A stretch of DNA of 54,625 nt from Verrucomicrobiota bacterium (GCA_043755815.1 JAYUSF010000108.1:1-54625), one strand, 5' to 3'. Positions 3,137 to 40,420 are shown, numbered from the stretch's first letter. Made by a program: numbers and translations. Notes: generated by a model not told the origin, from the letters alone.

Positions 3137-6100
3137 TCAGTCCACATAGAGGAACTCGTTCGCGCTGAGCAACGCCTGGCAAAGGTCCGTAAGCACCTGC
3201 CGTTCGGGCGTGGGCTTCGGTTCGGCCTTGGCCTTGTCGTCTTTCTTGGCCTTGTCGTCGGCCGGAGGCGGGGGAAGCGACGCGAGGTGGGCGAGTTGGC
3301 GTTGCACGAAGGCCTGCGCCTCGGCCTGTTCGGCGGCGGTGGGCGGACGCTGGAAGGCGAGCTGCCAGGCGCGGCGGACTTGCGCGGCGCGGTCGGGGCC
3401 GGCGTCGGTTTCCAGGCGGGCGGCGAAGCGGGCGGCCTGGTCGAGCAGGAACTGGCTGTTCATCAGCATCAGCGACTGCGTGGCCACGGTGCTGTGCTGG
3501 CGGCGCTCGCAGTTCACCTCCATCACGGGCGCGTCGAACGCGTGCAGCAGCGCCAGCGGCCGGCTGCGGCGCACCTGCACGTAAACCGAGCGGCGGAACT
3601 CCTCGCCGTTCAGCGAACCTTCCACGGGCATCTTGTTGTCGCCGGTCGTCTTGTCCTCGCCCACGACGATCTGCCCGTGGACATCGGGTCGCACGGGCAC
3701 GGGCGGGCCGAACTGTTTCCGATTCAGCGAACCGCTGGTGGCGAGCACCCCGTCGCGGATGACCTCGGCGTCGAGCCGTTGGACCGGCTTGCGCCAGTAA
3801 AGGCGGTTCTCCGGATCGCGCCGTTCCTGCTTCGGGTCGCGGCGCGAGGCTTGCCGGTAAGCCGTCGAAGTGAGGATGAGCTTGTGCAGGCGCTTGAGCT
3901 TCCAGCCGTGCTGCGTGAAGTCGCTGGCCAGCCAGTCGAGCAGTTCAGGATGCGTTGGCTTCTCGCCCATCGCGCCGAAGTCCGCCGGCGTGTTCACGAG
4001 GCCGCGGCCGAAGTGGTGGAGCCAGATGCGGTTCACCAGCACGCGGGCGACGAGCGCATTCGTGCCGCTGGTGAGCCACTGCGCGAAGGCCAGCCGCCGG
4101 CCGCTGGTGGCGAAGTCGGCGCGATTCGTCGGAAACTCGATGGGTTGTCCCGTCGCGCTGAGCACGCTGAGGCCGCCGGGCAGCACCGCGGCCTTGGGTT
4201 GGTGATAATCGCCGCGGTGGAAGACGTGGGTGACGGGCTGGTGATGGGCCGGTTCGGTCAGCACGCTGAGAAAATCCTCGGCCGGCTTCTTCGCACGGAT
4301 TTCGCCGATCTTGGCGTCCATCGCCTTCAGGTCATCGGCGGCCTTCGGGTTGTATTGGTAGAGGACGCCCGGGTTGATGTTCACGCTGGGGTTGTCGGCG
4401 AGCAGCTTCTTCTGCTCGGGTGTGCGCTTGTCGGCGGGCGTGTCGTAGGCGGCCCGCAGCGGTGCGCGCAGGGCCTCGTCGAACTTCTCGAGGTGCTTCG
4501 TCAGCGCGTCGGCAAGGTAGTCCTTCTGCTTGGCTTCCTTTTCGGCCGCGAGCTTCTGCGCCTCGGCTTCAATCGCGGCGGACTGCTTCCGGTCGTCGTC
4601 GGTGTAGAGCGAGACGAGGCGTTCGCCGGGCGTGCGCCACTGCCTGTAGTCGTAGGCGGGCTCGAACACGGCGCGCAGCCGGTAGTAATCGGCGTGCGGG
4701 ATCGGGTCGTAGCGGTGGTCGTGGCATTGCGCGCAGCCGACGCTCAGGCCAAGCAGGGAGGTGGAGACGATCTTCAGCGTGTCGGCCATGACCTGATTGC
4801 GAACGGCGTCCCGGTCGGTCAAGGCGTCCGTGGCCGACCCGTCCACGCCCATGCGAAGGTAGCCCGTGGCCACGAGGAGATCGCGGGACTCGGCGCTGGC
4901 GAGCGCGACGGAAGAAGCAGAGGCCTGCGTCGCTTGGGCGAGTTCATCGCCGGCGAGCTGTTCGGTGACGAAACGGTCGAACGGCTTGTCGTCGTTGAAG
5001 GCGCGGATGACGTAGTCGCGATACTTGTAGGCGTAGGCGCGCGGCGGATCGGCGTCGCTGTAGCCGTCGGAGTCGGCGTAACCCGCGACATCGAGCCAGT
5101 GCCGGCCCCAGCGCTCGCCGTAATGCTTCGACTCGAGCAGGCGGTCGATGAGTCGCTCGTAGGCGGAGGCGGAAGATTGAATCTGGAAGGCAGGAAAGCC
5201 GGAAGGGGAAGAGCTGTTTGAACGGTTTTCTTTCGTTCCTGTTTTCCTGCCTTCCAGATTCCTCTCCGCTTCGCATTCGCGCACGAACGACTCCACTTCC
5301 TCCGGCGTGGGCGGCAGGCCGGTGAGGTCCAGCGTCACGCGTCGGATCAGGGTCACGGGATCCGCGTCGGGTGAGAACTTCACCCCCGCTGGCTTCATTT
5401 CGCTGACTAGGAATGCATCCAGCGGCGTGCGCGCCCGATCGCGGCTTTTCGTCTTCGGCACCGCCGGCTCGCGGATCGGCTGGAACGACCAGAAGGAACG
5501 TTCCTCCTCGGTGATGCCGCTGGTGCCCTTCGGCAATTCAGTGGGTTCGGGTCGCGCGGTTTTCGCGCCGGTCGCGATCCATTGGCGGAGCAGGGCGATC
5601 TCGGCCGGCGTGGGCTTCTTGTCGCGCTTTGGCATCTTGCCGCTTTCGACCAGCTTCAGCAGTTCGCTTTGGTCGGGCTTGCCGGGCACGATGGCCGGGC
5701 CGTCGTCGCCGCCCGCGAGGAGCAAGCGCCGCAAGCGCACGTCGAGGCCGCCCTTGAGCTGCTCGCCCTCGCCGTGACAGTCGAAACAATGCGCCTTGAG
5801 GATCGGCCGGATGTCCTTTTCGAAGGTGGGCGCCGGAGCGGCGAGGGCGGAAGGTCCAAGAAGGAGTCCGAACACAACCAGAGCGGCGGCTTCCAACTTC
5901 CGCAACCGCCGACGTGAAGAGGCTCCAACTGGAGACGCTGAACCGGCCAACGATGAACCAAGGGCTGCGGGGCGGTGTGGTGCAACGACCGCTTCCCCCT
6001 CACCCCAACCCTCTCCCTCGGGGAGAGGGAGTTGCTGGCCGACGCGGAAAGACTCCGCACGCGCTTTGGACAAGGGCCACCTTGTTTTCGCCGGTGTGAC

Positions 6101-7069
6101 CACTGACTGAATCGAAGCACAGCGCGTTTGACAATCCACCGGCACCGTGGCGTTCCCCCTCTCCCCGAGGGAGAGGGCCGGGGTGAGGGGGAACCGGGCG
6201 TGGTTGAAAACCGCCGTTTGACCTGCAAACCAGCTCCGCACCAACCTCTCTGCGTGCCCCCCAAGTGTCTGACCCGCGTCGCACGCGCTCTGCGAAAGAA
6301 TGACACGTGGTCTGAACAGCTCATATGGGGCTGGCTGCGAGGACGACGGTTCGCAAGCTACAAGTTCCGACGCCAGCACCCGTTCGGGGATCATGTCCTG
6401 GATTTCTTCTGTCTCGAAGCATGGCTGAACCTTGAACTGGACGGTTCGGGTCACGGCTTCCCCGACCAGCGCGCCAAGGACGCCCTCCGCGATGCCGAAC
6501 TGGAGCGGAAAGGAATCAAGGTGCTGCGCTTCTGGAATGGTGATCTGCGCCGCAACGCCCGCTTCATTCAGGACATGATCTGGCAGGCATTGCAGGAGCG
6601 GGCTCCGCACCGCGGAACGGCCGGTAAGTCCTAAGCCCATGAAACTGCGGGAGGTTTCTTTCCCCTCACCCCAACCCTCTCCCTCGGGGAGAGGGAGTCG
6701 CCCGCTCACGGCAGACAACTCCGAAAGTAATTCTGACGAAGACCGCCCTGTGTCGCCCCCTACGATCGCGGACTGAATCGCAGCACTACGCGTTGGCCGA
6801 TCCGCTGACGCAGTGACATTCTCCCTCTCCCCAAGGGAGAGGGTCGGGGTGAGGGGGAACCGCGCACCAATGCAAGCCGCCGCGTGGTTCGTCAACGGAG
6901 CGCGGACGATCACGTCCGCGAGAATTGTTGAACGCTTCCGCGCGGTTCCGGCGAACTCGAGCGGCGACTTTCCAGTCGCCGAACCGAGGCGGCTGGAATG
7001 CCGCCCCTCCATCACGGTGTCCCCGCGGACGAGGCCGTCCGCGCTCCGCAAATGTCTCTCCGCCTTCAT
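3137..7069 (-). CDS. DUF1549/DUF1553 (PSD1) protein with N-terminal planctomycete cytochrome c domain; start either ATG 7069 (coupled to upstream gene) or TTG 5905 (signal peptide)
   Basis: FEKDIRPILKAHCFDCHG (CxxCH), WSFQP, LIRRVTLDLTGLPPT, YGERWGRHWLDVAGYADS, CAQCHDH, ARVLVNRIWLHHFGRGLV, QSLMLMN, ANEFLYVD. ATG at 7069 overlaps the TGA of the DUF1501 gene (ATGA) and is in frame; MRKLEAAALVVFGLLLGPSALA from TTG 5905 resembles a signal peptide. Confidence 0.9.
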   Translation of the reverse strand: MKAERHLRSADGLVRGDTVMEGRHSSRLGSATGKSPLEFAGTARKRSTILADVIVRAPLTNHAAACIGARFPLTPTLSLGERENVTASADRPTRSAAIQSAIVGGDTGRSSSELLSELSAVSGRLPLPEGEGWGEGKETSRSFMGLGLTGRSAVRSPLLQCLPDHVLNEAGVAAQITIPEAQHLDSFPLQFGIAEGVLGALVGEAVTRTVQFKVQPCFETEEIQDMIPERVLASELVACEPSSSQPAPYELFRPRVILSQSACDAGQTLGGHAERLVRSWFAGQTAVFNHARFPLTPALSLGERGNATVPVDCQTRCASIQSVVTPAKTRWPLSKARAESFRVGQQLPLPEGEGWGEGEAVVAPHRPAALGSSLAGSASPVGASSRRRLRKLEAAALVVFGLLLGPSALAAPAPTFEKDIRPILKAHCFDCHGEGEQLKGGLDVRLRRLLLAGGDDGPAIVPGKPDQSELLKLVESGKMPKRDKKPTPAEIALLRQWIATGAKTARPEPTELPKGTSGITEEERSFWSFQPIREPAVPKTKSRDRARTPLDAFLVSEMKPAGVKFSPDADPVTLIRRVTLDLTGLPPTPEEVESFVRECEAERNLEGRKTGTKENRSNSSSPSGFPAFQIQSSASAYERLIDRLLESKHYGERWGRHWLDVAGYADSDGYSDADPPRAYAYKYRDYVIRAFNDDKPFDRFVTEQLAGDELAQATQASASSVALASAESRDLLVATGYLRMGVDGSATDALTDRDAVRNQVMADTLKIVSTSLLGLSVGCAQCHDHRYDPIPHADYYRLRAVFEPAYDYRQWRTPGERLVSLYTDDDRKQSAAIEAEAQKLAAEKEAKQKDYLADALTKHLEKFDEALRAPLRAAYDTPADKRTPEQKKLLADNPSVNINPGVLYQYNPKAADDLKAMDAKIGEIRAKKPAEDFLSVLTEPAHHQPVTHVFHRGDYHQPKAAVLPGGLSVLSATGQPIEFPTNRADFATSGRRLAFAQWLTSGTNALVARVLVNRIWLHHFGRGLVNTPADFGAMGEKPTHPELLDWLASDFTQHGWKLKRLHKLILTSTAYRQASRRDPKQERRDPENRLYWRKPVQRLDAEVIRDGVLATSGSLNRKQFGPPVPVRPDVHGQIVVGEDKTTGDNKMPVEGSLNGEEFRRSVYVQVRRSRPLALLHAFDAPVMEVNCERRQHSTVATQSLMLMNSQFLLDQAARFAARLETDAGPDRAAQVRRAWQLAFQRPPTAAEQAEAQAFVQRQLAHLASLPPPPADDKAKKDDKAKAEPKPTPERQVLTDLCQALLSANEFLYVD
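5179..5261. repeat. In-frame palindromic element (GAATCTGGAAGGCAGGAAA arms) inside PSCyt gene 1
   Basis: Perfect 19-bp inverted repeat 5179-5197 / 5243-5261; translated as NLEGRKTGT...SGFPAFQI; absent from the paralog at 14144. Confidence 0.9.
5996..6196. repeat. Composite palindromic unit A: two inverted BoxC-like CCCTCACCCC..CCCTCTCCC...GGGAGAGGG hairpins plus spacer
   Basis: cccctcaccccaaccctctccctcggggagaggga (5996-6030) and inverted copy cccctctccccgagggagagggccggggtgagggg (6156-6190). Confidence 0.9.
6254..6634 (+). CDS. DUF559 / Vsr-like PD-(D/E)XK endonuclease-domain protein
   Basis: ARALRKNDTWSEQLIWGWLR..RF..YKFRRQHP.G..VLDFFC....L.LELDGSGH....DALRDAELE..GIKVLRFWN; likely GTG start at 6254, in frame with ORF 6128-6634. 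Confidence 0.9.
   Translation: MPPKCLTRVARALRKNDTWSEQLIWGWLRGRRFASYKFRRQHPFGDHVLDFFCLEAWLNLELDGSGHGFPDQRAKDALRDAELERKGIKVLRFWNGDLRRNARFIQDMIWQALQERAPHRGTAGKS
6662..6862. repeat. Composite palindromic unit B: direct repeat of unit A, offset 666 bp
   Basis: cccctcaccccaaccctctccctcggggagaggga at 6662 is identical to 5996; the right arm ends gggggaaccg at the same offset; spacers are colinear (gactgaatcg.agcac..cgcgtt.g.c.atcc). Confidence 0.9.
6897..7047. repeat. Nested REP-like pairs
   Basis: Outer pair ggagcgcggacgatcacgtccgcg (~6898-6921) / cgcggacgaggccgtccgcgctcc (~7024-7047); inner pair gcggcgactttccagtcgcc (~6961-6980) / ggcggctggaatgccgcccctcc (~6988-7010). Confidence 0.75.
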
Positions 7070-8541
7070 GCGTCGCGCAGGATTTCCTTCACCACGCGGC
7101 AGGGTTTGCCGTCGGTGAGATGCTGGCTCTGGCCGTTCTGGAAGTAGGCCAGCTCCGCGTGATCCAGGCCGAACAGGTGCAGCAGCGTGGCGTGGTAGTC
7201 GTTCGGGCTGACGGGATTCACGACCGCCTTGTGGCCGAACTCGTCCGTCTCGCCGTAGGTCATGCCGCCCTTGAAGCCGCCGCCCGCCACCCAGCTCGTG
7301 AAGCCCTGGCCGTTGTGGTCGCGCCCCGCCTTCTCCGCGGCGCCGTGATTCTCCGTCACCGGCAGGCGGCCGATTTCGCCGCCCCAATGCACGATCGTCG
7401 AGTCGAGCAGCCCGCGCGCCTTGAGGTCCTTCACCAGCGCGGTGGACGGCTGATCGGTCTTCCGGCAGCACGTCGCGAGGTTGCTTTTGATGCCCTCATG
7501 ATTGTCCCAGATCTGGCCGTTCACGAAGAGCTGCACGAACCGCACGCCGCGTTCCACCAACCGGCGCGCGATCAGGCAGCGCGCGCCGTATTCGCGCGTC
7601 TCGTCGCGGTCGAGGCCGTAGAGCTTCTTCGTGGCCTCGCTTTCGCCGGAGATGTCCAGCGCCTCCTTGGCGGCGGTCTGCATGCGCGCGGCGAGTTCGT
7701 AGCTGGCAATGCGCGCTTCCAGATCCGCTTCGCCCGGGTGCCGCGCGAGGTGCTCCTGATTCAGGCGGGCAAGGAAGGCCAGGTTCTGTTCCTGCAACGT
7801 GCCTTTCAGGTGCGGCGGCGGATCAAGGTTCAGGATACGCGGCTCCGCCGAGCGGACGACCGTGCCCTGGAACAGCGGCGGCATGAAGCCGTTCGACCAA
7901 TTCCGCACGCCGTCCACCGGATGCCCGCCCGGATCGGTGAGCACCACGTAGGCGGGCAGGCTCTGGCTTTCGGAGCCGAGTCCGTAGGTCAGCCATGAGC
8001 CGAGTGCGGGGCGCCCCGGCTGCGCGCGGCCGGTGTTCATGAACCAGATGGACGGCTCGTGCCCGTTGATGTCCGTGTGCATCGAGCGGATCACCGTCAC
8101 GTCATCCACGATGCTGGCGAAGTGCGGCAGCAGCTCCGAAACGGGCGTGCCGCACTGGCCGTGCTGGCGGAATTCCCACGGGCTGCCGAACAGCTTCTTG
8201 CTCGCCCGATCCACGAAGCTGAACGTGATCTCGCCCGCGTAATCCTGCCCGCTGCGTTTGGTGAGCTCCGGCTTCGGGTCGAAGAGGTCGATGTGACTCG
8301 GCCCGCCGTGCATGAAGAGCGAGATCATCGCCCGCGCCCGTGGCGTCCGCGACGGCTGCTTCTGCTTCAGGTCAAAGGACTGCGGGTTGCGCGGCACGTT
8401 GGCCGGCGTGGCGAGCAGGCGTTCCTCCCGCAACATCCACGCGAGGGCCACGCTGCCGACGCCCATCGCATTGCGCGCAAGGAAGCGGCGGCGGGAGAGG
8501 ATTCCCGGCTCAGCGAACGGCAGCGGCGGAAACGGATTCAT
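7066..8541 (-). CDS. DUF1501 family protein (sulfatase-like fold, Tat-like signal)
   Basis: SRRRFL signal, RAMISLFMHGGPSHIDLFDPKP, GSWLTYGLGSESQSLPAYVVL, ARRLVERGVRFVQL, WGGEIGRLP, GRDHN, GETDEFG. Confidence 0.93.
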   Translation of the reverse strand: MNPFPPLPFAEPGILSRRRFLARNAMGVGSVALAWMLREERLLATPANVPRNPQSFDLKQKQPSRTPRARAMISLFMHGGPSHIDLFDPKPELTKRSGQDYAGEITFSFVDRASKKLFGSPWEFRQHGQCGTPVSELLPHFASIVDDVTVIRSMHTDINGHEPSIWFMNTGRAQPGRPALGSWLTYGLGSESQSLPAYVVLTDPGGHPVDGVRNWSNGFMPPLFQGTVVRSAEPRILNLDPPPHLKGTLQEQNLAFLARLNQEHLARHPGEADLEARIASYELAARMQTAAKEALDISGESEATKKLYGLDRDETREYGARCLIARRLVERGVRFVQLFVNGQIWDNHEGIKSNLATCCRKTDQPSTALVKDLKARGLLDSTIVHWGGEIGRLPVTENHGAAEKAGRDHNGQGFTSWVAGGGFKGGMTYGETDEFGHKAVVNPVSPNDYHATLLHLFGLDHAELAYFQNGQSQHLTDGKPCRVVKEILRDA

Positions 8542-12395: not shown

Positions 12396-13901
12396 TCACG
12401 CCAACATCTGCCGGATCACTTCGCCATGCACGTCGGTGAGGCGGCGGTTCGCGCCGTTGTGGCGGAAGGTCAGGCGTTCGTGATCGAGGCCGAGCAGGTG
12501 CAGCACGGTGGCGTGGAAGTCGTAGTTGGTGGTCACGTCGCGCGCGGCTTTCCAGGACCATTCATCGCTTTCGCCGTAGGCCACGCCGGGCTTCACGCCG
12601 GCACCGGCCATCCAGCCCACGAACGTGCCGCCGTTGTGGTCGCGGCCCTCGCTGCTCTGCGCGAAGGGCATCCGGCCGAACTCGGTGTTCCACAGCACCA
12701 GCGTGTCATCGAGCAGGCCGCGCGCCTTGAGGTCGCGCAGCAAGGCGGCCACAGGCTGGTCGGTGGCGGCGCACATGGGCGGGAGTTCCTTCTGGATGTT
12801 GGCGTGGTTGTCCCAGTTGTTGGTTGGCCCACCCGCACCGCTCCACACCTGCACGAAGCGCACGCCGCGTTCCACCAACCGGCGCGCGAGCAGGCAGCGC
12901 CGACCGAAGTCCTCGGTGGTCTTGTGCTCGAGGCCGTAGAGCCGGCGCGTGGCTTCGGTCTCGCCGTCGAGCGCGAAGACCTCGGGTGCGCTGAGCTGCA
13001 TCCGGGCCGCGAGTTCGTAGGCCTGGATGCGGGCTTCGAGGCGTGAGTCGGCGGGATTCTCGGCGAGGTGCTGGCGGTTCAGCTTCTGCAGCAGCGCGAG
13101 TCCGTCGCGGTCAGCCTCGGGTGTGATGTAGCGGGCAGAAGCGGGTGCGCGGAGGTCGTTAAAGACGAAGCTGGAGGCTTCAACGGGCGAGACGCCAGTT
13201 GCACCGGCGGCAGGCGGGGCGCCTGTCCCACTGCGCGACTGGATGACGGTGCCCTGATGCGTCACCGGCAGGAATCCGGAGCTGAAGTTGCCCTTCTGGT
13301 TGTAGGGCAGACCCTTCGTGTCGGGCAGCACGACGAACGCCGGCAGGTTGTCGCTTTCGCTGCCCAGCGCGTAGCTGACCCACGCGCCGAAGCACGGGAA
13401 GCCGGGCAGCAGGAAGCCCGTGTTCATCAGGTAACTGCCGGGGCCGTGGACGTTCGTGCGCGACTGCATCGCCATGAAGAACGCGAGGTCATCCACGCCG
13501 CCGGCGAGGTGCGGCAGCAGGCTGCTCACCCAGCGCCCGGACTGGCCGTGCTGGCGGAATTCGAAGGGCGGCCTGAGCACCTTGCCCGGTTCGCTGGTGG
13601 GCGCCTCGACGCGGTCGCCGTTGCCCGGATCGAACGACTCGCCGGCGCGCTTGAACAGCGCGGGCTTGTAGTCGAACAGGTCCATCTGGCTCGCCCCGCC
13701 GTTCATGAAGAGCTGGATGACACGCTTGGCGCGGGGAGCGTGATGGGGAAGGAGGATTTGGGATTTCCGATTTCCGATTTCCGATTGGCCGGCAAGCAGG
13801 TGGTCGGCGCCGAGCAACTGGGCCAGCGCTGCCCCGCCGAGTCCGCCGCCGAGGCGGCCGAGGAACTCGCGGCGGGACGCAAATGGGTGCTGGCGATTCA
13901 C
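12396..13901 (-). CDS. DUF1501 family protein
   Basis: GTG start at 13901 (VNRQHPFASRREFL); RAKRVIQLFMNGGASQMDLFDYKP, ARRLVERGVRFVQV, TEFGRMP, GRDHN, LTDVHG; carries two short in-frame repeat insertions. Confidence 0.92.
   Translation of the reverse strand: MNRQHPFASRREFLGRLGGGLGGAALAQLLGADHLLAGQSEIGNRKSQILLPHHAPRAKRVIQLFMNGGASQMDLFDYKPALFKRAGESFDPGNGDRVEAPTSEPGKVLRPPFEFRQHGQSGRWVSSLLPHLAGGVDDLAFFMAMQSRTNVHGPGSYLMNTGFLLPGFPCFGAWVSYALGSESDNLPAFVVLPDTKGLPYNQKGNFSSGFLPVTHQGTVIQSRSGTGAPPAAGATGVSPVEASSFVFNDLRAPASARYITPEADRDGLALLQKLNRQHLAENPADSRLEARIQAYELAARMQLSAPEVFALDGETEATRRLYGLEHKTTEDFGRRCLLARRLVERGVRFVQVWSGAGGPTNNWDNHANIQKELPPMCAATDQPVAALLRDLKARGLLDDTLVLWNTEFGRMPFAQSSEGRDHNGGTFVGWMAGAGVKPGVAYGESDEWSWKAARDVTTNYDFHATVLHLLGLDHERLTFRHNGANRRLTDVHGEVIRQMLA
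13181..13232. repeat. Two tandem REP-like hairpins in frame inside DUF1501 gene
   Basis: caacgggcgagacgccagttgcacc and gcaggcggggcgcctgtcccact; translated SGTGAPPAAGATGVSPVE, absent from the three other DUF1501 paralogs. Confidence 0.75.
13755..13789. repeat. Heptamer tandem repeat (GATTTCC)n in frame
   Basis: gatttgg gatttcc gatttcc gatttcc gattggc; translated QSEIGNRKSQI just after the Tat-like signal. Confidence 0.85.
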
Positions 13902-14143
13902 GGGGAGGGGGGCGGTTCGGCGGCACTCAAACACGCGCGCGGTCGTCACGCCAGCGCGCGTTGCGGATTCGGCGTTTCGTGAAACTGCCGCGCCGTGTCC
14001 GGCTTCCTTTGCCCCACGGCCGCCCATTCTCGGCCTGCGCTCAGCGGCGCTCAATTCCGGCGCGGGCCAAAGACGTGCTTGCCTGCGAAAAACCGGCAGT
14101 GTGACGCTCCGTGACAATGCCCGCCGGAGAAACCGCACCCTTC

Positions 14144-19258: not shown

Positions 19259-22200
19259 ATGAGAAACTGGCTCGTCAGCGCCGTCTTCTTGGTTGGGTCG
19301 TGGCTGCGCGGTGCCGCCGCGGAACCCAAGGCGCCGCACTGGGCCTTCCAGCCCGTCCGGATTCCCGCGCCGCCGAAGGTGACCAACGTCGCGTGGGCCC
19401 GGACCACCCTGGACCGTTTCATCCTCGAACGGCTCGAGGCGAAGGGGCAGCAACCCGCGCCCGCGGCCGATCCGCGCACGCTCATCCGGCGGGCGACCTT
19501 CGACCTCACGGGGCTGCCGCCGACCGCGGAAGAGGTGGATGCGTTCGAGCGGGAAGTCGCCGGAGAGAAGAATCAGGAAGGCAGGAAAACAGGAACTTCT
19601 CCTGCGGGGGCGGATTCGCCCGCTCCTGCTTCCGGCTTTCCTGCCTTCCAGATTTTCCCCTCGGCCTATTCCCGCCTCGTTGACCGTCTGCTCGCCTCGC
19701 CGGCCTACGGCGAGCATTGGGGCCGGCATTGGCTCGACGTCGTGCGTTACGCCGACACGGCGGGCGAGACCGCCGACTATCCGGTGCCCGTCGCGTGGCG
19801 TTACCGCAACTACGTCATCGACGCCTTCAACGCCGACAAACCCTACGACGAGTTCCTCCGCGAACAGATCGCGGGCGACATCCTGGCGAAGGGCGGCCCG
19901 CGCGAACGCTACGCCGAACGCGTGACGGCCACGGGTTTCCTCGCGGTGTCGCGCCGGTTCGGCTTCGACTCGGAGAATTACCATCACCTCACGATCCAGG
20001 ACACGATCGACACGGTCGGCCAGAGCGTGCTCGGACTGACGCTGGGCTGCGCGCGCTGCCACGCCCACAAGTTCGACCCGGTCTCGCTGCCCGATTACTA
20101 CGCGCTCTACGGCATCTTCGACAGCACCCGCTACGCGTTCCCCGGCTCCGAGCAGAAGCAGCGGAGCCGCGCGCTCGTGCCGCTGGTGCCGCCCGGGGAA
20201 TCGCAGCCGAAGTGGCGGGAGTTTGAGCACCGGGTTGCCGGACTCATGCAGCGGATTGAACGGGGCAAACTGTCGGCGCCCTCCGCCGTGCTGCGGTCGC
20301 TCGACGAACTCGACGGCGACCTCGAAATGCAGGCGCCGGCCGCCGGCGGCAGCAAGGGCGTGCTCGTGCCCCCGTGGGTTTACGACGGCCCGATCGCCGT
20401 GACGGCAAACGCGCAGAGCCCGTTCAAGAACCTGTATCCGCTGGGCAAGGTCGGCGCGAGCGTCGCCGCCGGCACCAACGGCTACCGGCTGACGCAGGCG
20501 GTGCCCGCGGGGCCAAGGCGTTCCCCGGGACTCCTGCACGCGAGCCTGGATTTCCGCATCGGCGCGGCCGACTCCGCCACCCACGCACCCCACCGGTTCT
20601 GGCTCGGCGCGGCCGACGGCACGCCGGTCGCCGAAGTGCTGTTGACGGGTGAAGGGGTCACCGTGCGCGGGCGCGATTCGGTCCAACCCCACCGCACGCT
20701 GCGGCCCAACGAATGGTATCAGCTCCAGCTCACGCTGGATCTCGCCGTCGGCACGTTCACCGGCACGGTCGGCCGCCCCGGGGAGGTCACCAAAATAGGA
20801 CCGCGCCCGCTGCGGGGTCCCTGGACCAACGGCGTCGCCGCTTTTGGTTTGGATTCCCTGGCGTCGGCCGGCGGCTCCCGCGCGGCCATCGCCTTTGACA
20901 ACCTCGCCGTGCAGGCCGCGCCCATTCCGCCGGTGTCCACCACGTCACCGGTGGTGCTCGCCGCCGCCGGGACTGATGCCGCGGCCCTCGGCGCCCGGCT
21001 CCGGGAACTCGCCGGCCTCGACGGTGATTTCGAAAACCAGGACGACCACACGCCACCCGCCTCGCCGTGGGGTCCCGGACCGAACAGCGTGGCCCGAATC
21101 AGTGCCGCGGCGCAGAGCCCGTTCCGCAATCTTTACCCGGCCGGCCGGTTGGGCCTCCGCCTGCCCAACCGCGCCGCCTACGACGGCTTCGACCAGCAGC
21201 TCACCAACCGCTGGCAGGCGGACAAGACGCCGCGCCTGTTCGCCGGCTTCGACTTCCGCTGCGCCGACGTGACGGCGGGCGGCGACGGTTCGTGGCGCTT
21301 CTACGCGGGCCACGGCGCCGGACCGGCCCCGGCGGTGGAGCTGTTCTTCAACGGCCGCGACTTCTTCCGCCGCAGCGGCGAGGCGCGCGACGCCGTGTGT
21401 GCGCTGAAGGTGGGCGAGTGGTATCAGGTGCAGCTTGCGCTCGACCTCAAGGCGCGGAGCTACACGGGCGTGCTCGCGTCGACGAACGGGCGGACGGAAT
21501 TCTCCGGCCAGTTCGCCGGCAACTGGGACGGCAGCCTCGATTTCACCTTCATCGACAGCCACGGACACCTGGGCGGGGTGCGGCCCGCCCTGGACGTCGA
21601 CAACTTCGTCTTCCGCGAGACCCCGCTGCCCCCGTTGGACGCCCGCCCCGGCGAGGTCGCCGCGGGCGAACGGGTGGCGCGGCGGAACCAGTTGTCCGAA
21701 CTGCGGGGACAGCTCGCCGAGGCGAAGGCGGATGCCGACCGGGCGCGCCGGGAACTCGAGTCGCTGCTCGCCGAGGGACCGTTCCCGCTCACCTACGGCG
21801 TCACCGAAGGCACCCCGCGCGACGCCCGCATCCAGATCCGGGGCGAGCCGGACCGGCCGGGCGACGTGGTTCCGCGCGGCTTCCTCCATGTGCTGGGCGG
21901 TGGCTCATTGCCCAAAGGCGCGACGGGCAGCGGTCGGCTCGAACTCGCCGAATGGCTCACCAGTCCCACGAACCCGCTGACGGCCCGGGTGATGGTGAAC
22001 CGCATCTGGCAGTATCACTTCGGCCAGGGCCTCGTGAAGACGCCGAACGACTTCGGCACCCGCGGCCTACGCCCGACGCATCCCGAACTGCTGGATCACC
22101 TGGCAACGGAGTTCATCCGCGGCGGCTGGTCCATCAAGGCGCTGCACCGGCTGATCATGAACAGCGCGGTTTACCAGCAGAGGAGCCAGTATTCAGTGAT

Positions 22201-22874: not shown

Positions 22875-23255
22875 ATGGGCATGGAAGCGAAAACATCATC
22901 GGTCGGCGCTCGTCCAGACTGGAGCGGCGGTTGGTTGCGACGCCCGGTTCCCCCTCACCCTGTCCCTCTCCCTCGGGGAGAGGGGATCGACCGCGTGTGT
23001 GATGTGAGTCCACAGACGCCTCAGCCAGGGGCTGCCCATCGCCTCGCTGTATCGGAGTATCACGCGACTGGAGTAGCCTTGCTTCGTGACTTTCTCCCTC
23101 TCCCGCAGGGGGAGGGCCGGGGTGAGGGGGAAGCACGCTCAACGACTCATCGCCACTCAACCTCAATTCCTCCGCAAACGAACACCGACCTGGCATCCCG
23201 TCGGCTGAAAAGCCTCCGCTCCCGGCCGACGCGACCCACGACTGAAGACCCGTGA
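22875..23255 (+). other. REP-derived 126-aa bridge ORF between PSCyt and DUF1501 genes
   Basis: ATG 1 nt after the PSCyt TGA (22871-22873); its TGA (23253-23255) overlaps the DUF1501 GTG (GTGA); no recognisable domain. Confidence 0.45.
22951..23131. repeat. Composite palindromic unit C (same BoxC-like family as units A and B, no nuclease)
   Basis: cccctcaccctgtccctctccctcggggagagggg (22951-22985) and inverted ccctctcccgcagggggagggccggggtgaggggg (~23096-23131). Confidence 0.88.
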
Positions 23256-28532: not shown

Positions 28533-28780
28533 CTAAACCTCCACCGCCTCCACCGTCTCGTAGAGTGCGGCGATGCTCTTCGACGCAATGCGGAACTGGC
28601 TCCGTCGTTTGACTTTCGCCCGCTCCCCATCTCCGCCTCGATCGGGGAGAGGGCCGGGGTGAGGTGTCGAAGCATTTTTCAGCTTGATGCCGGGGTCGTA
28701 ATCCACCGCGCCGCCCGCCAGCGCCTTGAGCAGACGCAACCCATCCGTCCGCTGCGCCAGCCGGACGCGCGCGCCGTAGA
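28533..28780 (-). pseudogene. C-terminal remnant of an MvaI/BcnI-family restriction endonuclease, with in-frame REP insertion
   Basis: YGARVRLAQRTDGLRLLKALAGGAVDYDPGIKLKNAS...KVKRRSQFRI...LY resembles the YYDPGIK.EN...KRRSQFR C-terminus I recall for this family; in-frame stop just upstream (~28803). Confidence 0.6.
28624..28671 (-). repeat. 48-bp BoxC-like element, left copy
   Basis: Reverse complement matches 39013-39060 at 47 of 48 positions. Confidence 0.9.
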
Positions 28781-36376: not shown

Positions 36377-38012
36377 ACAAGCACGCCTTCCGTTGCCGCG
36401 AGGCCGGCCCGCTGGGCTTCGACGCAGTAGAGGTTGTAGTCACTGAGCTGGCCTGCCTCGTAACGTCGCCACGCTTCGCCACCGATGCCTTCCAGCGCCA
36501 CCGGCCAGCCGCTGCGGGTGTGGCGGCGGTCCAGTTCCCGCTCGAAGCCGGGCAGGCCCAGTTGTTCGGTCGGGACTTCCTCAATCGTGTCGCCGTGGTC
36601 GAGGGCGTTGTCGGGATGCAGGCCGGGAAACAGGAACAGCAACGCATGCCAGCCACGGAGGAATTCTTCCTTGGGCAGGGCGCGCAAGGCGCGGCGGTCG
36701 AGCTGGGCTAGGCGCTCCAATTCGCGGGCGGCTTCCGCTCTCGTAGGAGACGACGTGAGGAGGCGCTGACTTCCCTTTACCCGGCTCCCGTGGCGAGGGA
36801 GCAGAGAATGAGTCTCGTCACCTCGACTCCTACCCGCTTGGAGGAACTCCTTCACCTGCAAGCCCACCGCCTCGCCGATGAGGGGCGGGACTGCATTGCC
36901 GATGAGGCGTGGGTGCGGGCCGAGGGGAAGCGAAACCAGTCGGGGAAGCTCTGAATTCGGGCGGCTTCGCGCGGCGTGAGTGAGCGGTTTTGCGTGGGGT
37001 GGATGAACATCAGGCCATCCTTGCTCAGGTGGGCCACGATGGTGCTGCACAGGGAGGCGCGGCTTTGCCGGGTGTAGCGGTCCTTGAAACTGGATTTGTC
37101 GTAGGGGAATTCGAACCGGACATGGCGGTCGCGCATGGCGGTGGCGGAATTCTCGCCTTCGGCCAGCTTGGCGAAATCGCGCAGGTCGCGCTCGCTGTGG
37201 GGCCGCGAAACGTGGTTGGTCAGGCGCTCCGCGAGGTCCACTTCTAGGACTTCGCCGAGGTAGTTCCGGGCCGTGGGATCGTTCCGCACATGGCGGTTGC
37301 GGAGTGCGGAATCGTAATCCTGCTCGTGGTCGCCTTCGCCGGCGGCGAGTGCCGGCAAATCGCCCAGCGCATGGCCCAACCGGGTGCCCACATGGGCTCG
37401 GCTGGCTGGTTTCAGCTCAGGCAGAAAGTATCCGGGCACGTCGCCTCGGGTGCCGATGATGAGCTGGCGCCGCCGCTTTTGGGGGACTCCCAGTTCTTCG
37501 GCGCATTCGACCTGGGCATGGACGCGATAACCTAGGGCGCGGGCCTCCGCCTGCACGCGGGTGAAGTATTCACCGCCAGCCGCACTGCGGAGGCCAAGGA
37601 CGTTTTCCATCACGAATACCCTCGGTTGGAAAAATCCAACGTAACGGAGGAACTCGCGGTAGAGGTGGCGGCGCGGGTCGTCCTTGAGCCGAGCGCCATG
37701 ATTGGCCCCGTCGCGTTGCCGCGCGGTGCTAAAACCTTGGCAGGGCGGACCGCCGACGATGACGTCCACGGATCGGGTGCCGAGGAGTTCGGCGAGTTCG
37801 GCGGGAGCGAACCGGGTGAGGTCGCGGTGCAGGGCATGTTGGACCGGCGGCAAGCCGGCGGGATTGGCCGCGCCCAAGTTTGTCTCAAGCGTCGCGATGG
37901 CCTCGGGATTGAAGTCAACGGCGGCCAATACGCGGTAACCGGCGCGCTGCATCCCAAGGGTGAACCCTCCACAACCGCAGAAAAGATCAAGGCAGGTGAG
38001 CGGGGCACTCAC
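36373..38012 (-). pseudogene. C5-cytosine DNA methyltransferase with C-terminal extension, frameshifted just before motif X
   Basis: Motifs I DLFCGCGG, IV GGPPCQGFS, VI FVMENV, VIII QKRRR and IX RSLTPREAARIQSFP are in frame 36852-38012; motif X LIGNAVPP and the tail continue in frame 36373-37050; switch at ~36908; tail TGA overlaps the ATPase GTG. Confidence 0.85.
36743..36833. repeat. GTAGGAGACGA-type REP pair, in frame in the MTase tail
   Basis: gtaggagacgacgtgaggaggcgctgact ... agtctcgtcacctcgactcctac; related copy at 38463-38538. Confidence 0.85.
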
Positions 38013-38245
38013 GGCACGTCCTCCATGAGCTTGGCGGCGGTGACGCCCAAGGCCTTGGCCAGCTTTGCGACGGTCAGGACTCCGGGATTGCGGGTGCCGG
38101 ACTCGATGCCGCTGAGGAACGAGCGGTCGAGGTTCGCCTTAGCGGCAAGTTTCTCTTGCGACAGCCCCGACTGAGTTCGAAGCCGGAGGACATTGCGACC
38201 GAAGGCGGCAAGGGTTCGGTCAGGCTTTGGCACGGCGGAGAGCAT
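38009..38245 (-). CDS. XRE-family HTH regulator (RM controller C-protein-like)
   Basis: FGRNVLRLR...GLSQEKLA..A.LDRSFLSGIESG.RNP....V.KLA.ALGV; stop overlaps the MTase start. Confidence 0.9.
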   Translation of the reverse strand: MLSAVPKPDRTLAAFGRNVLRLRTQSGLSQEKLAAKANLDRSFLSGIESGTRNPGVLTVAKLAKALGVTAAKLMEDVP

Positions 38246-38287: not shown

Positions 38288-38560
38288 AAATGTTTCGGAC
38301 TGGAACACGCATTTCGCGCCTGCCTTCTCGAAGGCGATCCGGAATCCGCCGATGCCGCAGAAGAGGTCGATGAAGCGCAAGGCGGCCACCTCTCCCCGGC
38401 CCTCTCCCCGGAGCGGAGAGGGAGAAGAACCGGCGCGGTAGGGCGGGGCGGCTTCCTGGGCCGTAGGAGACGAGGTGACGAGTCTCTGACGTTTCGGCTG
38501 TCGGGGAGAGGTTTGAGCCTCCTCACGTCGGATCCTATCGGGCTTGGTTTTCCCGCTCAT
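38276..38560 (-). pseudogene. 5' remnant of a second Dcm-like C5 methyltransferase, with two in-frame REP insertions
   Basis: LRFIDLFCGIGGFRIAFEKAGAKCVFQSE (motif I) followed by abrupt loss of homology; ATG 38560 overlaps the TGA of the upstream HTH; REPs at 38389-38423 and 38463-38538. Confidence 0.8.
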
Positions 38561-38884
38561 GCGTCGACTCCCTCGCAGAGTTGGGCGGTGGTGAGGCGGA
38601 GGGCCTTGGCGAGCCGCGCGACGTTCAGGATGCCGGGGTTGCGCAGGCCGCGTTCGATGCCGCCAATACAACCCTCACCCGGCCTGACGGCCACCCTCTC
38701 CCATCCGCTGGGCGAGGGGCATGGGGTCCAGCCCCGCCTTTTCAGCCAACTTTTCCTGGGTTAGGGCGCGTTCCTCGCGCCGGCGGCGGACGTTTTGTCC
38801 GAGGGCGGCGAGGACCGGGCGGCGGCGTGGGCGGACAGGAATGTCCGCGGTCCCGGCGGGATTGGCGGCGGCGCGTTTCGGCAT
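38557..38884 (-). pseudogene. XRE/C-protein HTH gene disrupted by a REP insertion
   Basis: LGQNVRRRREERALTQEKLAEKAGLDP, then the REP at 38672-38719 (stop plus frameshift), then IGGIERGLRNPGILNVARLAKALRLTTAQLCEGVDA* in another frame. Confidence 0.85.
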
Positions 38885-38967: not shown

Positions 38968-39092
38968 GTGGGGCGGCGTTGGTCAGGGCTGCGGAGCACG
39001 CAGCCCCACCGGTTCGACACCTCACCCCGGCCCTCTCCCCGATCGAGGCGGAGAGGGGGAAAAGAATCTGCGTCCGTCTGCGTCATCTACGG
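38968..39092. repeat. Cluster of REP-like elements including the right copy of the 48-bp element (39013-39060)
   Basis: gggctgcggagcacgcagccccacc hairpin; ttcgacacctcaccccggccctctccccgatcgaggcggagaggggga; atctgcgtccgtctgcgtcatctacgg short repeat. Confidence 0.75.
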
Positions 39093-39104
39093 AGGGCAGC
39101 GTTT

Positions 39105-39560
39105 TCAACACCTCACCTTGGCCGGCTCCGCGTTCGAGGCGGAGCCGGGGGCCTTTTTCAGCCAGGCCACCTTGATTTCCTTCTCCAGCGCCTTGAACTC
39201 CGGGTCGCCGGTGACGAGTTCGGCCTTCTTCTCCTTGGCCAGCGCGGCGGCGAAGGCGTCGGCAAGGCTGAGCTTGAAGCGGGCTTTGAACTGGGCCGCC
39301 TGGCGGGCGAGCTTGAGGTCTTCGCCCACGCCCACCACGTCAATCGGCAGGGTGGCAAGGTCGGCCACCGCCTGTTCGGCCACCTGCCGCCCGCCCGCCC
39401 GCTCCATCGAGTAATAGACCTCGGTCCAGTTGACCGCCGAGAGCAGCAACTGCTTCCCGGAGACCGAGGCGGCCTCGATCAGCGTCTCAACCTCGGCACC
39501 CGCCGGTTCGCCCTTGTAGAACGCCAGCACCGCCCAACTGTCCAGAACCTTGGCCGTCAT
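39105..39560 (-). CDS. vapC: VapC-family PIN-domain toxin
   Basis: VLDSWAVLA, SAVNWTEVYY, LSLADAFAAALA, LVTGDPEF. Confidence 0.92.
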   Translation of the reverse strand: MTAKVLDSWAVLAFYKGEPAGAEVETLIEAASVSGKQLLLSAVNWTEVYYSMERAGGRQVAEQAVADLATLPIDVVGVGEDLKLARQAAQFKARFKLSLADAFAAALAKEKKAELVTGDPEFKALEKEIKVAWLKKAPGSASNAEPAKVRC

Positions 39561-39838: not shown

Positions 39839-40420
39839 TCAACATCCCAATTTCCTACTTGTTACAAAATTTCCCCCAATCCGACGGCGAACGCCCTGCC
39901 CTTGGGTCGCGGGGACGGAGCGGTGGCGGACCGGAATGTCCGCGCTCCCGGCGGCGGGAAACCAACGGCGAAGGCGGCGCTCCAGCCGCGCTTCCCGCCT
40001 GCGGGCCAGCTCGTGTTCCCAGAGGCGGAGCACCTTCCACCCCGCGCGGCGGAGCGTGCGGGTGACGAGCCGGTCGCGGGCAACATTGGCCGCGAACTTC
40101 TTCCGCCAGAACGCCGCGTTGCCCTGCGGCTTCGTGCCGTGCTCGGGACAGCCGTGCCAGAAGCAGCCGTCCACAAACACCACCAGCCGGCGTTGCGGGA
40201 AGACGAAGTCGGGCCGGACCGAGAAGGCGCGGTTCGCGTTCTGCCGCCCGCGGTCCTGGCGGGCGTTGGGGGTCACCCGGATCCGGACGTGCCGTCGCCA
40301 GCCCGTGATGTGGAGCGACCGGAAGACGCGGACCAGCGCCAGCTCGGTGCGGGCGTTGCCGCGCGAACGGATGCGCGCCATCACGGCGGAACGCTTGGCC
40401 TTGGTGAAGATGTCCGCGAT
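39839..40420 (-). CDS. vsr: Very-short-patch repair endonuclease Vsr; start codon appears to be ATC; REP-extended tail
   Basis: (I)ADIFTKAKRSAVMARIRSRGN..TEL, RPDFVF....VFVDGCFWHGCPEH, N..FW..K...NVARD, GWKVLRLWEHE; REP ggcggaccggaatgtccgcgctccc at 39925-39949. Confidence 0.88.
   Translation of the reverse strand: MADIFTKAKRSAVMARIRSRGNARTELALVRVFRSLHITGWRRHVRIRVTPNARQDRGRQNANRAFSVRPDFVFPQRRLVVFVDGCFWHGCPEHGTKPQGNAAFWRKKFAANVARDRLVTRTLRRAGWKVLRLWEHELARRREARLERRLRRWFPAAGSADIPVRHRSVPATQGQGVRRRIGGNFVTSRKLGC

Follow-up and report, generated by a model that had tools for sequence, protein, structure and literature searches.

Selfish hairpins that survive in frame within genes offer a route to new protein loops and linkers, a route known chiefly from Rickettsia and, in the case of a single repeat type, from a few additional bacteria. 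Two further kinds of repeats bear on the locus presented here: REPIN-RAYT systems, reportedly described by Bertels and Rainey in 2011 and by Nunvar in 2010, and BoxC or triplex-motif repeats, which have been known for decades and for whose origin we know of no explanation.

The closest described case is that of the Rickettsia palindromic elements (RPEs; Ogata et al. 2000, 2002), which, as summarized in PMC10969869 and PMC3733652, form palindromic families of about 100 to 150 nt that lie in frame in unrelated housekeeping genes, adding peptide segments that orthologues lack and that are presumed to occupy sites compatible with the fold. Di Nocera et al. (2013, BMC Genomics 14:522, PMC3733652) describe intragenic GTAG/CGTC REPs, the dimers of which encode about 20 to 30 residues, as well as the REPtron; in their account, the verrucomicrobium Opitutus terrae has the most intragenic GTAG REPs, with uvrA, a ligase, and RNA helicases among the hosts. 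A description for the phylum therefore exists, contrary to a previous reading of the present DNA from the sequence only; in the literature searched on palindromic in-frame repeats in Verrucomicrobia, PMC3733652 was the relevant paper, and searches on Verrucomicrobiota miniature inverted repeats and on intragenic repeats in Opitutus terrae turned up only unrelated ones. Finally, the intrastrand triplex motif BoxC/PIT/TMECO of E. coli (Holder et al. 2015, NAR 43:10126, PMC4666352) is described there as exclusively intergenic and without a link to mobile elements.

Here, we analyzed a 54,625-nt stretch of DNA ("the window") and the genome it belongs to, a freshwater Limisphaerales/Pedosphaera-like Verrucomicrobiota metagenome-assembled genome (MAG) of 5.7 Mb in 388 contigs (83% complete). 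As in the published outline of RPEs, several palindromic families have in-frame copies in unrelated genes whose orthologues lack the insert. Unlike the reduced intracellular genomes described for RPEs, the host is a free-living, GC-rich, 5.7-Mb verrucomicrobium, and the elements are set apart from RPEs by their description: a GTAG REP dimer, BoxC/triplex units, and octamer- or heptamer-armed hairpins, from about 20 to 245 nt in size. In-frame hairpin insertion is hence a known kind of event, but it involves unusually many repeat families here; with at least six families and about 70 host genes, this is a large-scale case in a free-living bacterium.

Repeat families in the window and in the genome

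All families are multi-copy and dispersed, with 13 to 162 nhmmer loci per family in the 5.7-Mb genome (E1, 66; E2, 118; E2s, 162; E3, 92; E6, 55; E7, 13), and E4 numbers 24 copies and E5 10 strict hairpins, against 0 in shuffled genomes. The inverted arms make the families palindromic. E1 arms occur four times in the window (5179, 5246 on the minus strand, 19570, and 19640 on the minus strand), with 0.03 expected, and the decamer CCCTCACCCC five times (5997, 6663 and, on the minus strand, 6180, 6846, and 23119), with 0.25 expected. At 28624 and 38389 the decamer is inexact; nhmmer places divergent members of this family there (28624-28669 and 38387-38425). GTAGGAGACGA is found at 36743, 36823 (minus strand, one mismatch), 38463 and, with one mismatch, 47979; GCGGAC..GTCCGC hairpins (E4) lie at 38830 and 39925, and heptamer arrays at 13762-13786, 22193-22219, and 22273-22299. 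GGCGAGACGCC alone stays at chance level in the window (5 found, 5.18 expected), but it is part of a genuine dispersed double-hairpin element, E5. The families had been taken as unrelated to each other, yet some are related: the 245-nt doublets have BoxC units for arms, and heptamer arrays turn up next to or inside E3 halves. Low complexity generated by slippage was rejected as the source of the inserts, because the same sequences are present as intergenic copies.

Table 1. Elements and host genes in the window.
Position	Strand	Feature	Location or remark
3137..5905	-	Host gene, PSCyt1-PSCyt2-PSD1	True extent; codon model and Pfam
5174..5266	-	E1 hairpin, GGAAGGCA/GGAAAGCA octamer arms	In frame in PSCyt2 domain of 3137..5905
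5972..6214		E2 doublet, two inverted BoxC/triplex-motif units	Intergenic, upstream of true start of 3137..5905
6254..6634	+	DUF559 (Vsr-like endonuclease) gene	Between two E2 doublets; Pfam DUF559 6.6e-28; PDB 3HRL 1.6e-15
6659..6880		E2 doublet	Intergenic, downstream of DUF559 gene 6254..6634
12396..13949	-	Host gene, DUF1501 protein	Carries E5 and E7
13160..13236	-	E5 double hairpin (GACAGGCG..CGCCTGTC type)	In-frame insertion of ~19 aa in DUF1501 domain of 12396..13949
13754..13787	-	E7 heptamer array (GGAAATC x3.6)	Linker between twin-arginine signal and mature DUF1501 domain of 12396..13949
19259..22873	+	Host gene, PSCyt2-PSD1	Carries E1 and E6
19565..19659	+	E1 hairpin	In frame, equivalent PSCyt2 site of paralogue 19259..22873
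22188..22304	+	E6 hairpin, heptamer-repeat arms (TCAGTGA/ACTGAAC)	In frame in PSD1 domain of 19259..22873
22927..23152		E2 doublet	Spacer between PSD1-family gene (stop 22873) and DUF1501 gene (start 23252)
28624..28669		Single BoxC-like unit	In 89-codon remnant ORF; coding doubtful
36740..36833	-	E3 long hairpin	Between frameshifted Dcm C-terminus and same-frame 115-codon ORF; ambiguous
38387..38425		BoxC-like unit	Non-coding, upstream of truncated Dcm N-terminal fragment
38461..38540		E3 hairpin	Non-coding, region upstream of Dcm fragment
38665..38720	-	BoxC-like unit	Splits HTH (XRE-type) gene; read from translations, not in nhmmer list
38830..38848		E4 short hairpin (GGCGGAC..GTCCGC)	Leader of broken HTH gene
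39015..39147		Two BoxC-like units	Downstream of PIN gene
39925..39943	-	E4 short hairpin	C-terminal tail of Vsr ORF 39839..40384, beyond domain matches

Frame, hosts, and orthologues of the genic copies

A copy was counted as genic if home-made codon-model gene calls extended over 60 codons or more and scored 30 bits or more for coding on each side of it. Genic copies thus defined (E1, 8; E2, 33; E2s, 45; E3, 35; E6, 21; E7, 7) reside in 70 distinct genes, and the genic share of the main families ranges from 8/66 to 35/92 loci (strict counts), which bears out the proposal that this lineage holds several REP/MITE-type families with a large share of copies in frame in real genes. Because HMM-defined element ends are imprecise, length modulo 3 is uninformative. 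An earlier classifier with 150-nt flanks, by which only 44% of random positions counted as "in frame," was replaced by the gene caller and a stricter flank test. This test, which is independent of gene calls, covered 84 loci with open, coding-like 180-nt flanks on one strand: 75 are in frame and stop-free, 2 are in frame with a stop, and 7 change the frame. Frame-keeping loci thus outnumber frame-breaking ones by 75 to 9; about half of the positions first cited are not in proteins. Frame preservation is not uniform, since one BoxC-like unit splits an HTH gene, the N-terminal half of which ends in a stop while the C-terminal half lies in another frame; such a frame-breaking copy is expected if insertion is not frame-aware.

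The copies at 5179, 19570, 22187, and 13181 lie within Pfam domains and correspond to gaps in orthologues or paralogues, and the one at 13755 lies in a linker; the peptides SGFPAFQI and SVISDQ are indeed encoded. Four other positions are doubtful: 28624 falls in a remnant whose MvaI_BcnI match is below threshold (21.2 bits against a 25-bit cutoff), 36743 is ambiguous, and 38830 and 39925 belong to the leader of the broken HTH gene and to the Vsr tail. The repeats might even be extragenic throughout, placed in proteins by the long chance ORFs of GC-rich DNA; the six frames of the window hold 194 ORFs with at least 100 aa. This does apply to 5996 and 6662, which lie before the real start in an ORF that was extended too far, and to 38389 and 38463, which precede a DNA-methylase (Dcm) N-terminal fragment of only 29 residues. 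The ORF in question, 3137..7471 (1444 aa), is a 5' over-extension of gene 3137..5905: Pfam domains begin only at residue 562, the codon model yields the shorter gene, and the DUF559 gene lies on the opposite strand inside the extension. As a general explanation, however, chance ORFs are refuted by the alignments, where orthologues are homologous on both sides and show a gap at the element. Furthermore, among 16 host ORFs scanned with Pfam (families in 14, nothing in 2), the elements split or flank domain matches in 12 (among them HrpA, RapA, UvrC, UvrA, AcrB, a CMAS methyltransferase, and PSD1-family proteins). An artefact of this kind is thus extremely improbable as a general cause and appears confined to the four positions just named. 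The practical lesson is that the repeats inflate and confuse gene calls, as in this 1444-codon ORF, and seed spurious "hypothetical proteins"; the second of the two units downstream of the PIN gene (39106-39147) is the source of the last codons of ORF 39105..39560.

Outside the genus, orthologues lack the inserts. The first HrpA insert is absent from 6/6 other genera and varies in frame among six congeners, the second HrpA site holds two, one, or no units among congeners, and the UvrC match is split in every genus but g1 and g5. At the young end, the E5 insert of 12396..13949 is missing from 3/3 same-genus orthologues (88% identity) and 10/10 other-genus orthologues and is, judging from these alignments, species-specific. 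The E6 insert of 19259..22873 is found throughout the genus orthologues aligned, incomplete or degraded in three other genera, and missing from two more; the E7 array sits in a variable linker in which congeners have a different stretch of equal length. With event ages from genus-old to species-specific, rates and tolerated sites could become measurable across the many MAGs of the group. Assembly chimeras were rejected, since independently assembled congeners have the same inserts at the same sites. Among congeners, identity is 62% and 70% in the inserted peptides, compared to 79% in the rest of the protein. AlphaFold2 gave poor models (mean pLDDT 58 and 42.5; shallow alignments of 16 and 13 sequences), in which the inserts lie in stretches with pLDDT below 50 and E1 lies between predicted helices.

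Long stable mRNA hairpins might hinder ribosomes, and one could suppose that the inserts are removed at the RNA level or bypassed, or that their hosts are pseudogenes. In that case, pressure on frame and stop codons would be unexpected, yet 75 of the 84 testable loci keep an open frame; moreover, single-copy genes for repair and transcription (uvrA, uvrC, hrpA, rapA) are among the hosts, and indels among congeners comprise whole codons. We therefore judge it very unlikely that the inserts go untranslated.

The E3 family further addresses how copies come to lie in frame. Its HMM consensus, GTAG...CTAC with complementary palindromic arms of ~30 nt, resembles the GTAG REPs described in PMC3733652. 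Dimers coding for about 20 to 30 residues are a further common trait, as is an enrichment of repair and helicase genes among the hosts (here uvrA, uvrC, hrpA, and rapA). Unlike the Opitutus terrae case of that description, the present one comes from another, Limisphaerales-like order, and the non-GTAG families E1, E2s, E5, and E6 behave alike. In intergenic E3, two of the six frames are closed (3% open each), as GTAG puts TAG in them, and 30 genic copies spread over the other four (11, 9, 6, and 4), a result that is partly circular because lying "inside" requires an open frame. Since E3 uses all four stop-free frames, "filtered" fits better than "frame-targeted," the two options originally offered, with E1 at one PSCyt2 site as the exception. 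Compared with the REPtron as described in PMC3733652, no E3-flanked RAYT gene was found in the assembly (83% complete): among 15 Y1_Tnp matches (4 full-length), none has E3 within 1.5 kb, and the transposase genes are flanked by sequences of their own in one to three copies. The Y1 transposase genes in the assembly were accordingly rejected as RAYT partners of E3.

We consider it likely that, as a whole, the pattern results from several proliferating hairpin families that land at random and are purged where harmful, leaving in-frame survivors that are read through and later drift. The families concerned would be the GTAG-tagged REP dimer E3, the BoxC/triplex units (E2s) and the 245-nt doublets that they build (E2), and three further hairpins, E1, E5, and E6, together with short elements related to these. 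Such repeats would insert anywhere, genes included. Purging would remove any copy that causes a frameshift, introduces a stop codon, or falls in a structured core, and a copy whose length is a multiple of three, whose sequence has no stop in the host frame, and whose site is a permissive loop or linker would survive and be read through as 10 to 80 extra residues. Fixed inserts may then drift faster than the host protein, with units gained, lost, and duplicated in three-base steps. By analogy with RPEs and with the intragenic GTAG REPs of Opitutus terrae, as these are described, the pattern fits random insertion plus selection; we infer that the peptides are translated and that selection rather than targeting is the filter, and any moving enzyme named here is putative.

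Recurrence of E1 at one PSCyt2 position

Four of the eight genic E1 copies occupy one PSCyt2 position, between 'GLPP..F' and 'AY..L(V/I)DRLL', in 4/43 paralogues. Such a recurrence is not easily accounted for by random insertion and filtering alone. A possible reading, though one we lean against, is site-directed spread, in which E1 at least targets conserved DNA or is passed on by patch-wise gene conversion between PSCyt2 paralogues. The four E1-bearing paralogues do not appear to form one clade, judging from the topology of a FastTree tree of 50 proteins. For two of them, the element is confined to the genus: E1 of 3137..5905 is present in 3/3 same-genus orthologues and faces a clean 36-aa gap in 6/6 other-genus orthologues, and that of 19259..22873 is present in 4/4 and faces a 32-aa gap in 6/6. 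Because these other-genus orthologues lack E1, its gains postdate the paralogue split. In addition, a stretch resembling 'R-E/D-C-x-A/E-E' just before the element is common to all four paralogues and missing from the insert-free ones compared, and the E1 loops differ wholly between paralogues. On the other hand, intergenic E1 copies show neither an evident target-site duplication nor an evident flanking consensus, the remaining four genic copies have unrelated hosts (UvrC, a sodium:solute symporter, and two more), and the other families are spread over many sites and every stop-free frame.

Alternatively, the hairpins might have been domesticated for a function in DNA or mRNA, such as translation pausing, mRNA stability, or recombination signaling, with the peptide as a by-product. 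In five congeners, the E1 insert of 19259..22873 retains a hairpin of -45 to -61 kcal/mol with near-invariant arms, while loop and peptide diverge, and in HrpA of congener G005 four residues are missing symmetrically from each of the two doublet arms (seen at the protein level only). However, copying between the many genomic copies could equally give conserved arms, the stem shows decay in congener L038 (an internal loop), other-genus orthologues do without the inserts with no visible consequence, and the host genes are functionally unrelated, all of which makes domestication unlikely compared with the filtering of random insertions. As a separate observation, the near-perfect E1 arms in five species may reflect selection on the hairpin or copying between copies.

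BoxC-like units and DUF559 nuclease genes

With slightly relaxed spacers (2-6/2-8 and 2-4 allowed), the published consensus CCCTCNCCC-N3-6-GGGNGAGGG-N3-GGGNGAGGG describes the E2s units: it is matched 6 times in the window, where 0 are expected, and 66 times genome-wide, compared to 0 in the shuffle. As reported for BoxC/TMECO, the units occur singly or as inverted pairs, and they would be candidates for triplex formation. Unlike the E. coli motif as PMC4666352 presents it, 23/66 consensus matches lie inside coding calls, e.g., HrpA and RapA, and units bracket DUF559 genes. The inverted pairs form the E2 doublets, which have 59-nt arms (83% complementary) lying 127 nt apart and a non-coding core, of about 122 nt in 5972..6214; 61 E2 loci genome-wide measure at least 150 nt.

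This BoxC/triplex-motif family brackets DUF559 nuclease genes and is co-distributed with them. BoxC units adjoin 3/3 DUF559 genes in the analyzed genome, and in 14 genomes (our own plus 13 relatives) units lie within about 450 nt of 23/24 full-length DUF559 genes, compared to 0/5 partial matches; where units are found on both sides, they are inverted in 17/17 loci. Among 20 relatives, which as related genomes are not independent, the 11 with full-length DUF559 are the same 11 that have E2 matches (2 to 83 each), and the 9 without it are the 9 without any E2. The main text of PMC4666352 contains neither "DUF559" nor "in-frame," and no paper linking DUF559 with repeats was found in the DUF559 literature, judged by title.

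The arrangement is reminiscent of REPIN-RAYT/REPtron systems (for REPtrons, see PMC3733652): a single- or low-copy nuclease or transposase gene bracketed by inverted hairpin repeats, with tens of repeat copies elsewhere in the genome and a shared distribution of gene and repeat among genomes. The difference is that the bracketed gene encodes a predicted DUF559 PD-(D/E)xK-type (Vsr-like) endonuclease rather than an IS200/Y1 tyrosine transposase. It is tempting to speculate, though we hold this somewhat short of probable, that BoxC/triplex repeats are the non-autonomous offspring of a selfish DUF559 cassette, a REPtron analogue built on a PD-(D/E)xK nuclease, and that both bare hairpins and cassette survive in essential genes by in-frame readthrough. 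If true, the link would offer a testable account of where a repeat family of unexplained spread comes from, as well as a first function for DUF559. Under this reading, the recurrence of E1 at one PSCyt2 site hints at homology- or structure-directed repair copying, rather than classical transposition, for some hairpin families.

A derivation in which the E2 doublet is a MITE formed by internal deletion of a DUF559 element was rejected, as the DUF559 unit between the inner BoxC units resembles none of the cores of three copies in the window (best local scores, 15 to 22). The DUF559 cassette itself lies in frame inside hsdR and hsdM in some relatives. The repeats also fragment assemblies, and the contigs of one congener stop at an element.

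Repeat families and their copies in the window

The sequence-only reading had taken the short palindromic elements of the window for repeats, and this was borne out both by motif excess in the window and by multicopy, dispersed families across the genome. Within the window, the arm motif of the octamer-armed hairpin E1 occurs four times (0.03 expected), the BoxC-like decamer five times (0.25 expected), and the motif of the long GTAG...CTAC hairpin E3 four times (0.54 expected), and TRF places heptamer arrays at 13762, 22193, and 22273. Although GGCGAGACGCC, another motif named in that reading, is by itself at chance level (5 versus 5.18 expected), it lies within a real element. A whole-genome search combining BLAST with three nhmmer rounds, in which matches on both strands were merged into loci, yielded 66 dispersed loci for E1, 118 for E2 (a 245-nt doublet of inverted BoxC/triplex-motif units), 162 for the single unit E2s, 92 for E3, 55 for the heptamer-armed hairpin E6, and 13 for the heptamer array E7. 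Motif scans of the genome found 24 copies of the short GCGGAC..GTCCGC hairpin E4 and 10 strict E5 double hairpins, with none of either in shuffled genomes. All of these counts come from a fragmented MAG (5.74 Mb in 388 contigs, 64.8% G+C, estimated to be ~83% complete), a type of assembly in which repeats are under-assembled. The families had been described as unrelated, which is only partly the case, since the arms of E2 are E2s units and E7-type heptamer arrays adjoin E3 halves. The label “BoxC-like” proved correct, as E2s matches the published BoxC/TMECO triplex-motif consensus.

The proposal that the copies noticed in the window lie inside coding frames held for those at 5179, 19570, 22187, 13181, and 13755, which fall in domain envelopes or a linker, but not for four others: those at 5996 and 6662 belong to an overextended ORF, and those at 38389 and 38463 lie ahead of a methylase fragment. 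The copies at 28624, 36743, 38830, and 39925 are doubtful, being placed in a remnant, an ambiguous junction, a leader, and a tail, respectively. The overextended ORF (3137..7471, 1444 codons) has Pfam matches only from residue 562 on; a signal-peptide-like start is found near 5905-5911, the codon model confines the gene to 3137..5905, and within the “extension” a DUF559 gene runs in the opposite direction. Translations of the host genes confirmed that the peptides SGFPAFQI and SVISDQ are encoded by the E1 and E6 inserts. Another BoxC-like unit, overlooked in the earlier reading, splits an XRE-type HTH gene, whose N-terminal half meets a stop inside the unit and whose C-terminal half is resumed in a different frame. 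Preservation of the frame is therefore not an intrinsic property of the elements.

Elements and neighboring features in the window and in related genomes
Feature	Position	Placement or description
E1	5174-5266	PSCyt2 domain envelope of one paralogue (Pfam); encodes ..EGRKTG..SGFPAFQI..
E1	19565-19659	PSCyt2 domain envelope of the other paralogue (Pfam); encodes ..EGRKTG..SGFPAFQI..
E6	22188-22304	PSD1 envelope of the second paralogue; encodes ..SVISDQ..LNTD..
E5	around 13181	~19 extra residues in DUF1501 domain; gap there in three window paralogues
E7 (GGAAATC array)	13754-13787	Linker following twin-arginine signal
BoxC-like copies	5996 and 6662	Outside any protein; within false extension of ORF 3137..7471
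Third E2 doublet	22927-23152	Spacer between genes
BoxC-like copy	28624	Inside 89-codon remnant; restriction-enzyme match below threshold
E3	36743	Between frameshifted Dcm C terminus and 115-codon ORF, same frame; one product or two ambiguous
Two copies	38389 and 38463	Upstream of DNA-methylase fragment matching first 29 profile positions only
Element copy	38830	In a leader
Element copy	39925	In a C-terminal tail
BoxC-like unit	~38665-38720	Within split XRE-type HTH gene, 38560-38884 (-)
Intact paralogue of split HTH gene	38009-38245	
Dcm cytosine methylase	36852-38012, 36373-37050 (-)	Frameshifted just ahead of conserved C-terminal IGNAVPP motif
PIN (VapC) ORF	39105-39560 (-)	Last ~14 codons from BoxC-like unit 39106-39147, past the PIN domain match
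First gene	113-2695 (+)	Tandem repeats of ~126 nt (42 residues), at least 10 copies, 64-89% identity
Direct repeat, 300 nt	52084-52383 and 54255-54554	87% identity, 2.2 kb apart, right end of window
DUF559 cassettes in type I restriction genes	L133:697-2706, L134:1-2100, L137:1-2514 (loci from relatives)	HsdR twice, HsdM once

As to their setting, four PSCyt1/PSCyt2/PSD1 plus DUF1501 gene pairs occupy the left half of the window, and a patch at ~34.9-40.4 kb combines genes for a GHKL ATPase and Vsr with a VapBC pair, a Dcm methylase disrupted by a frameshift, and HTH genes and fragments. The second Dcm frame continues through the E3 hairpin into another 115 coding-like codons, and these overlap with the beginning of the GHKL ATPase gene.

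Genic copies across the genome and their reading frames

Genes were called with a simple home-made caller based on a codon log-odds model trained on long ORFs; the 4296 genes that it returned make up 85.6% of the genome. A copy was considered genic if it was flanked on each side by at least 60 codons and at least 30 bits of coding score in one uninterrupted frame. Under these strict criteria, the HMM-based count found genic copies in all six nhmmer families (8 of 66 loci for E1, 33 of 118 for E2, 45 of 162 for E2s, 35 of 92 for E3, 21 of 55 for E6, and 7 of 13 for E7), spread over 70 distinct genes genome-wide. A Pfam scan of 16 host ORFs identified families in 14, with matches around or flanking the elements in 12. 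The hosts include HrpA (four E2 loci), RapA (four BoxC units), UvrC (E1 within the RNase H-like domain, which spans 238 residues against a 158-position profile), UvrA and AcrB (both with E6), a CMAS-type methyltransferase (E3), and several PSD1-family, WD40, and cytochrome proteins. Predicted structure models of host proteins were too low in quality to assign the inserts to surface positions.

Since a copy can count as “inside” only if the frame is open, we added a flank test free of that requirement, in which both 180-nt flanks of E1, E2, E3, and E6 loci had to be open and to look coding on one and the same strand. Among 84 such loci, 75 kept the same frame without a stop, 2 kept it with a stop, and 7 changed frame, against an expected frame change in about two thirds for unfiltered genic insertion. 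Overall, the original observation is partly confirmed, and its interpretation is partly supported within the window and well supported genome-wide.

The elements had been proposed to be either filtered or targeted. For E3, frame use points to filtering: in intergenic copies, two of the six frames are nearly always closed (3% open), and the 30 long genic copies are distributed across the other four frames, in both orientations. E1 behaves differently, since half of its genic copies (4/8) sit at an identical position, which is occupied in 4 of the 43 PSCyt2 proteins that the genome encodes.

Insertions seen against orthologues and recurrence at one site

Comparison with orthologues identifies the genic elements as insertions. 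In gene 19259..22873, E1 is present in 4/4 same-genus orthologues and is matched by a clean 32-residue gap in 6/6 from other genera; in gene 3137..5905, it is present in 3/3 congeners, with a 36-residue gap in 6/6 other genera. In a fourth congener (G005), the orthologue of the latter gene is broken over two contigs at E1 (L208 and L215), one match starting near a contig end right after the element and the other stopping right before it, an example of the way in which such repeats break up MAG assemblies. In the DUF1501 gene, the E5 insert is species specific, as it has no counterpart in 13/13 aligned orthologues, including three congeners that are ~88% identical. HrpA site 1 is empty in 6/6 other genera; in the six congeners it is occupied by a doublet that is complete, shortened, or reduced by small in-frame deletions. 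Site 2 holds two tandem units here and a single unit in one congener, and it is vacant in others. In the protein alignment, HrpA from G005 (L164) lacks, relative to L162, four residues at mirror positions in both arms of the BoxC doublet, a symmetric change suggesting that the evolution of one arm is not independent of the other. Uninterrupted UvrC matches are confined to genera g1 and g5, those in all other genera being split at about residues 350 to 430; close relatives of this UvrC come from MAGs that carry the labels Verrucomicrobiota, Limisphaerales, or Pedosphaera and are mostly of freshwater origin. The E6 site is older, being recognizable or decayed in three other genera and absent in two. 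Inserted peptides are 62% and 70% identical among congeners, compared with 79% for the remaining protein.

By the branching order of a FastTree phylogeny of 50 family members, the four E1-bearing PSCyt2 proteins do not form a clade, and insert-free orthologues from other genera fall between them. Together with the orthologue gaps, this implies at least two gains of E1 at the same site after the genus arose, and probably more. Directly upstream of the hairpin, all four share a short stretch missing from insert-free paralogues; their loops are unrelated. Such a recurrence would fit patch-wise conversion between paralogues, but it would fit sequence-directed insertion just as well. The E1 hairpin is well kept, with folding energies between -45 and -61 kcal/mol across the five congeners, which may mean that the hairpin is under selection or that it is renewed from other copies.

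Relation to known elements and to DUF559 genes

At its core, the phenomenon matches what is known of Rickettsia palindromic elements, and its closest counterparts are the intragenic GTAG/CGTC REPs reported by Di Nocera et al. (2013; abstract and passages of PMC3733652). There, the verrucomicrobium Opitutus terrae is described as having the most intragenic GTAG REPs, with uvrA, ligase, and RNA-helicase genes among the hosts, and disruptive REP copies are argued to be removed by selection. The belief that such elements had not been described in this group is therefore only partly right, and the present case is a rich, fresh example of an event type already known. Relative to those parts of PMC3733652, what is additional here is that several unrelated non-GTAG families behave alike in one genome, that BoxC/triplex-motif units and 200-nt doublets lie in frame in housekeeping genes, and that E1 recurs at one site and BoxC units partner with DUF559. 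By its consensus, E3 is classed as a GTAG-tagged REP in dimer form. None of the 15 Y1-transposase matches in this incomplete assembly (four of them full length) has E3 beside it, and their flanks are low copy, so that no REPtron was recognized in it. Partial Y1 (IS200-like) matches, covering profile positions ~40-121, lie within very long open frames of 700 to 1400 codons (contigs C283:21206-24061, C255:5358-9497, C334:1-2145, and C145:2-2485).

The association of BoxC units with DUF559 genes is a side lead whose interest could extend more widely. E2s units adjoin all three DUF559 genes of the genome; at 5972-6880 in the window, a DUF559 (Vsr-like) endonuclease gene (6254..6634) stands between two doublets. 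When this genome and 13 relatives are taken together (14 genomes), units lie within ~450 nt of 23 of 24 full-length DUF559 matches, mostly 25 to 130 nt away and on both sides, compared with 0 of 5 partial matches, and wherever units flank both sides they are inverted (17/17 loci). Both gene and repeat were looked for in 20 relatives: E2 matches (2 to 83 each) occur in exactly the 11 that have a full-length DUF559 and in none of the other 9, although these genomes are related and hence not independent. None of the papers found to mention DUF559 has a title that concerns repeats. Holder et al. (2015, PMC4666352) describe the triplex motif as always intergenic in E. coli, and neither “DUF559” nor “in-frame” appears in their main text. 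In two relatives, the HSDR_N and ATPase domains of HsdR are separated by an in-frame DUF559 domain with its flanking units, and in another this domain and its units follow, again in frame, the methylase domain of HsdM.
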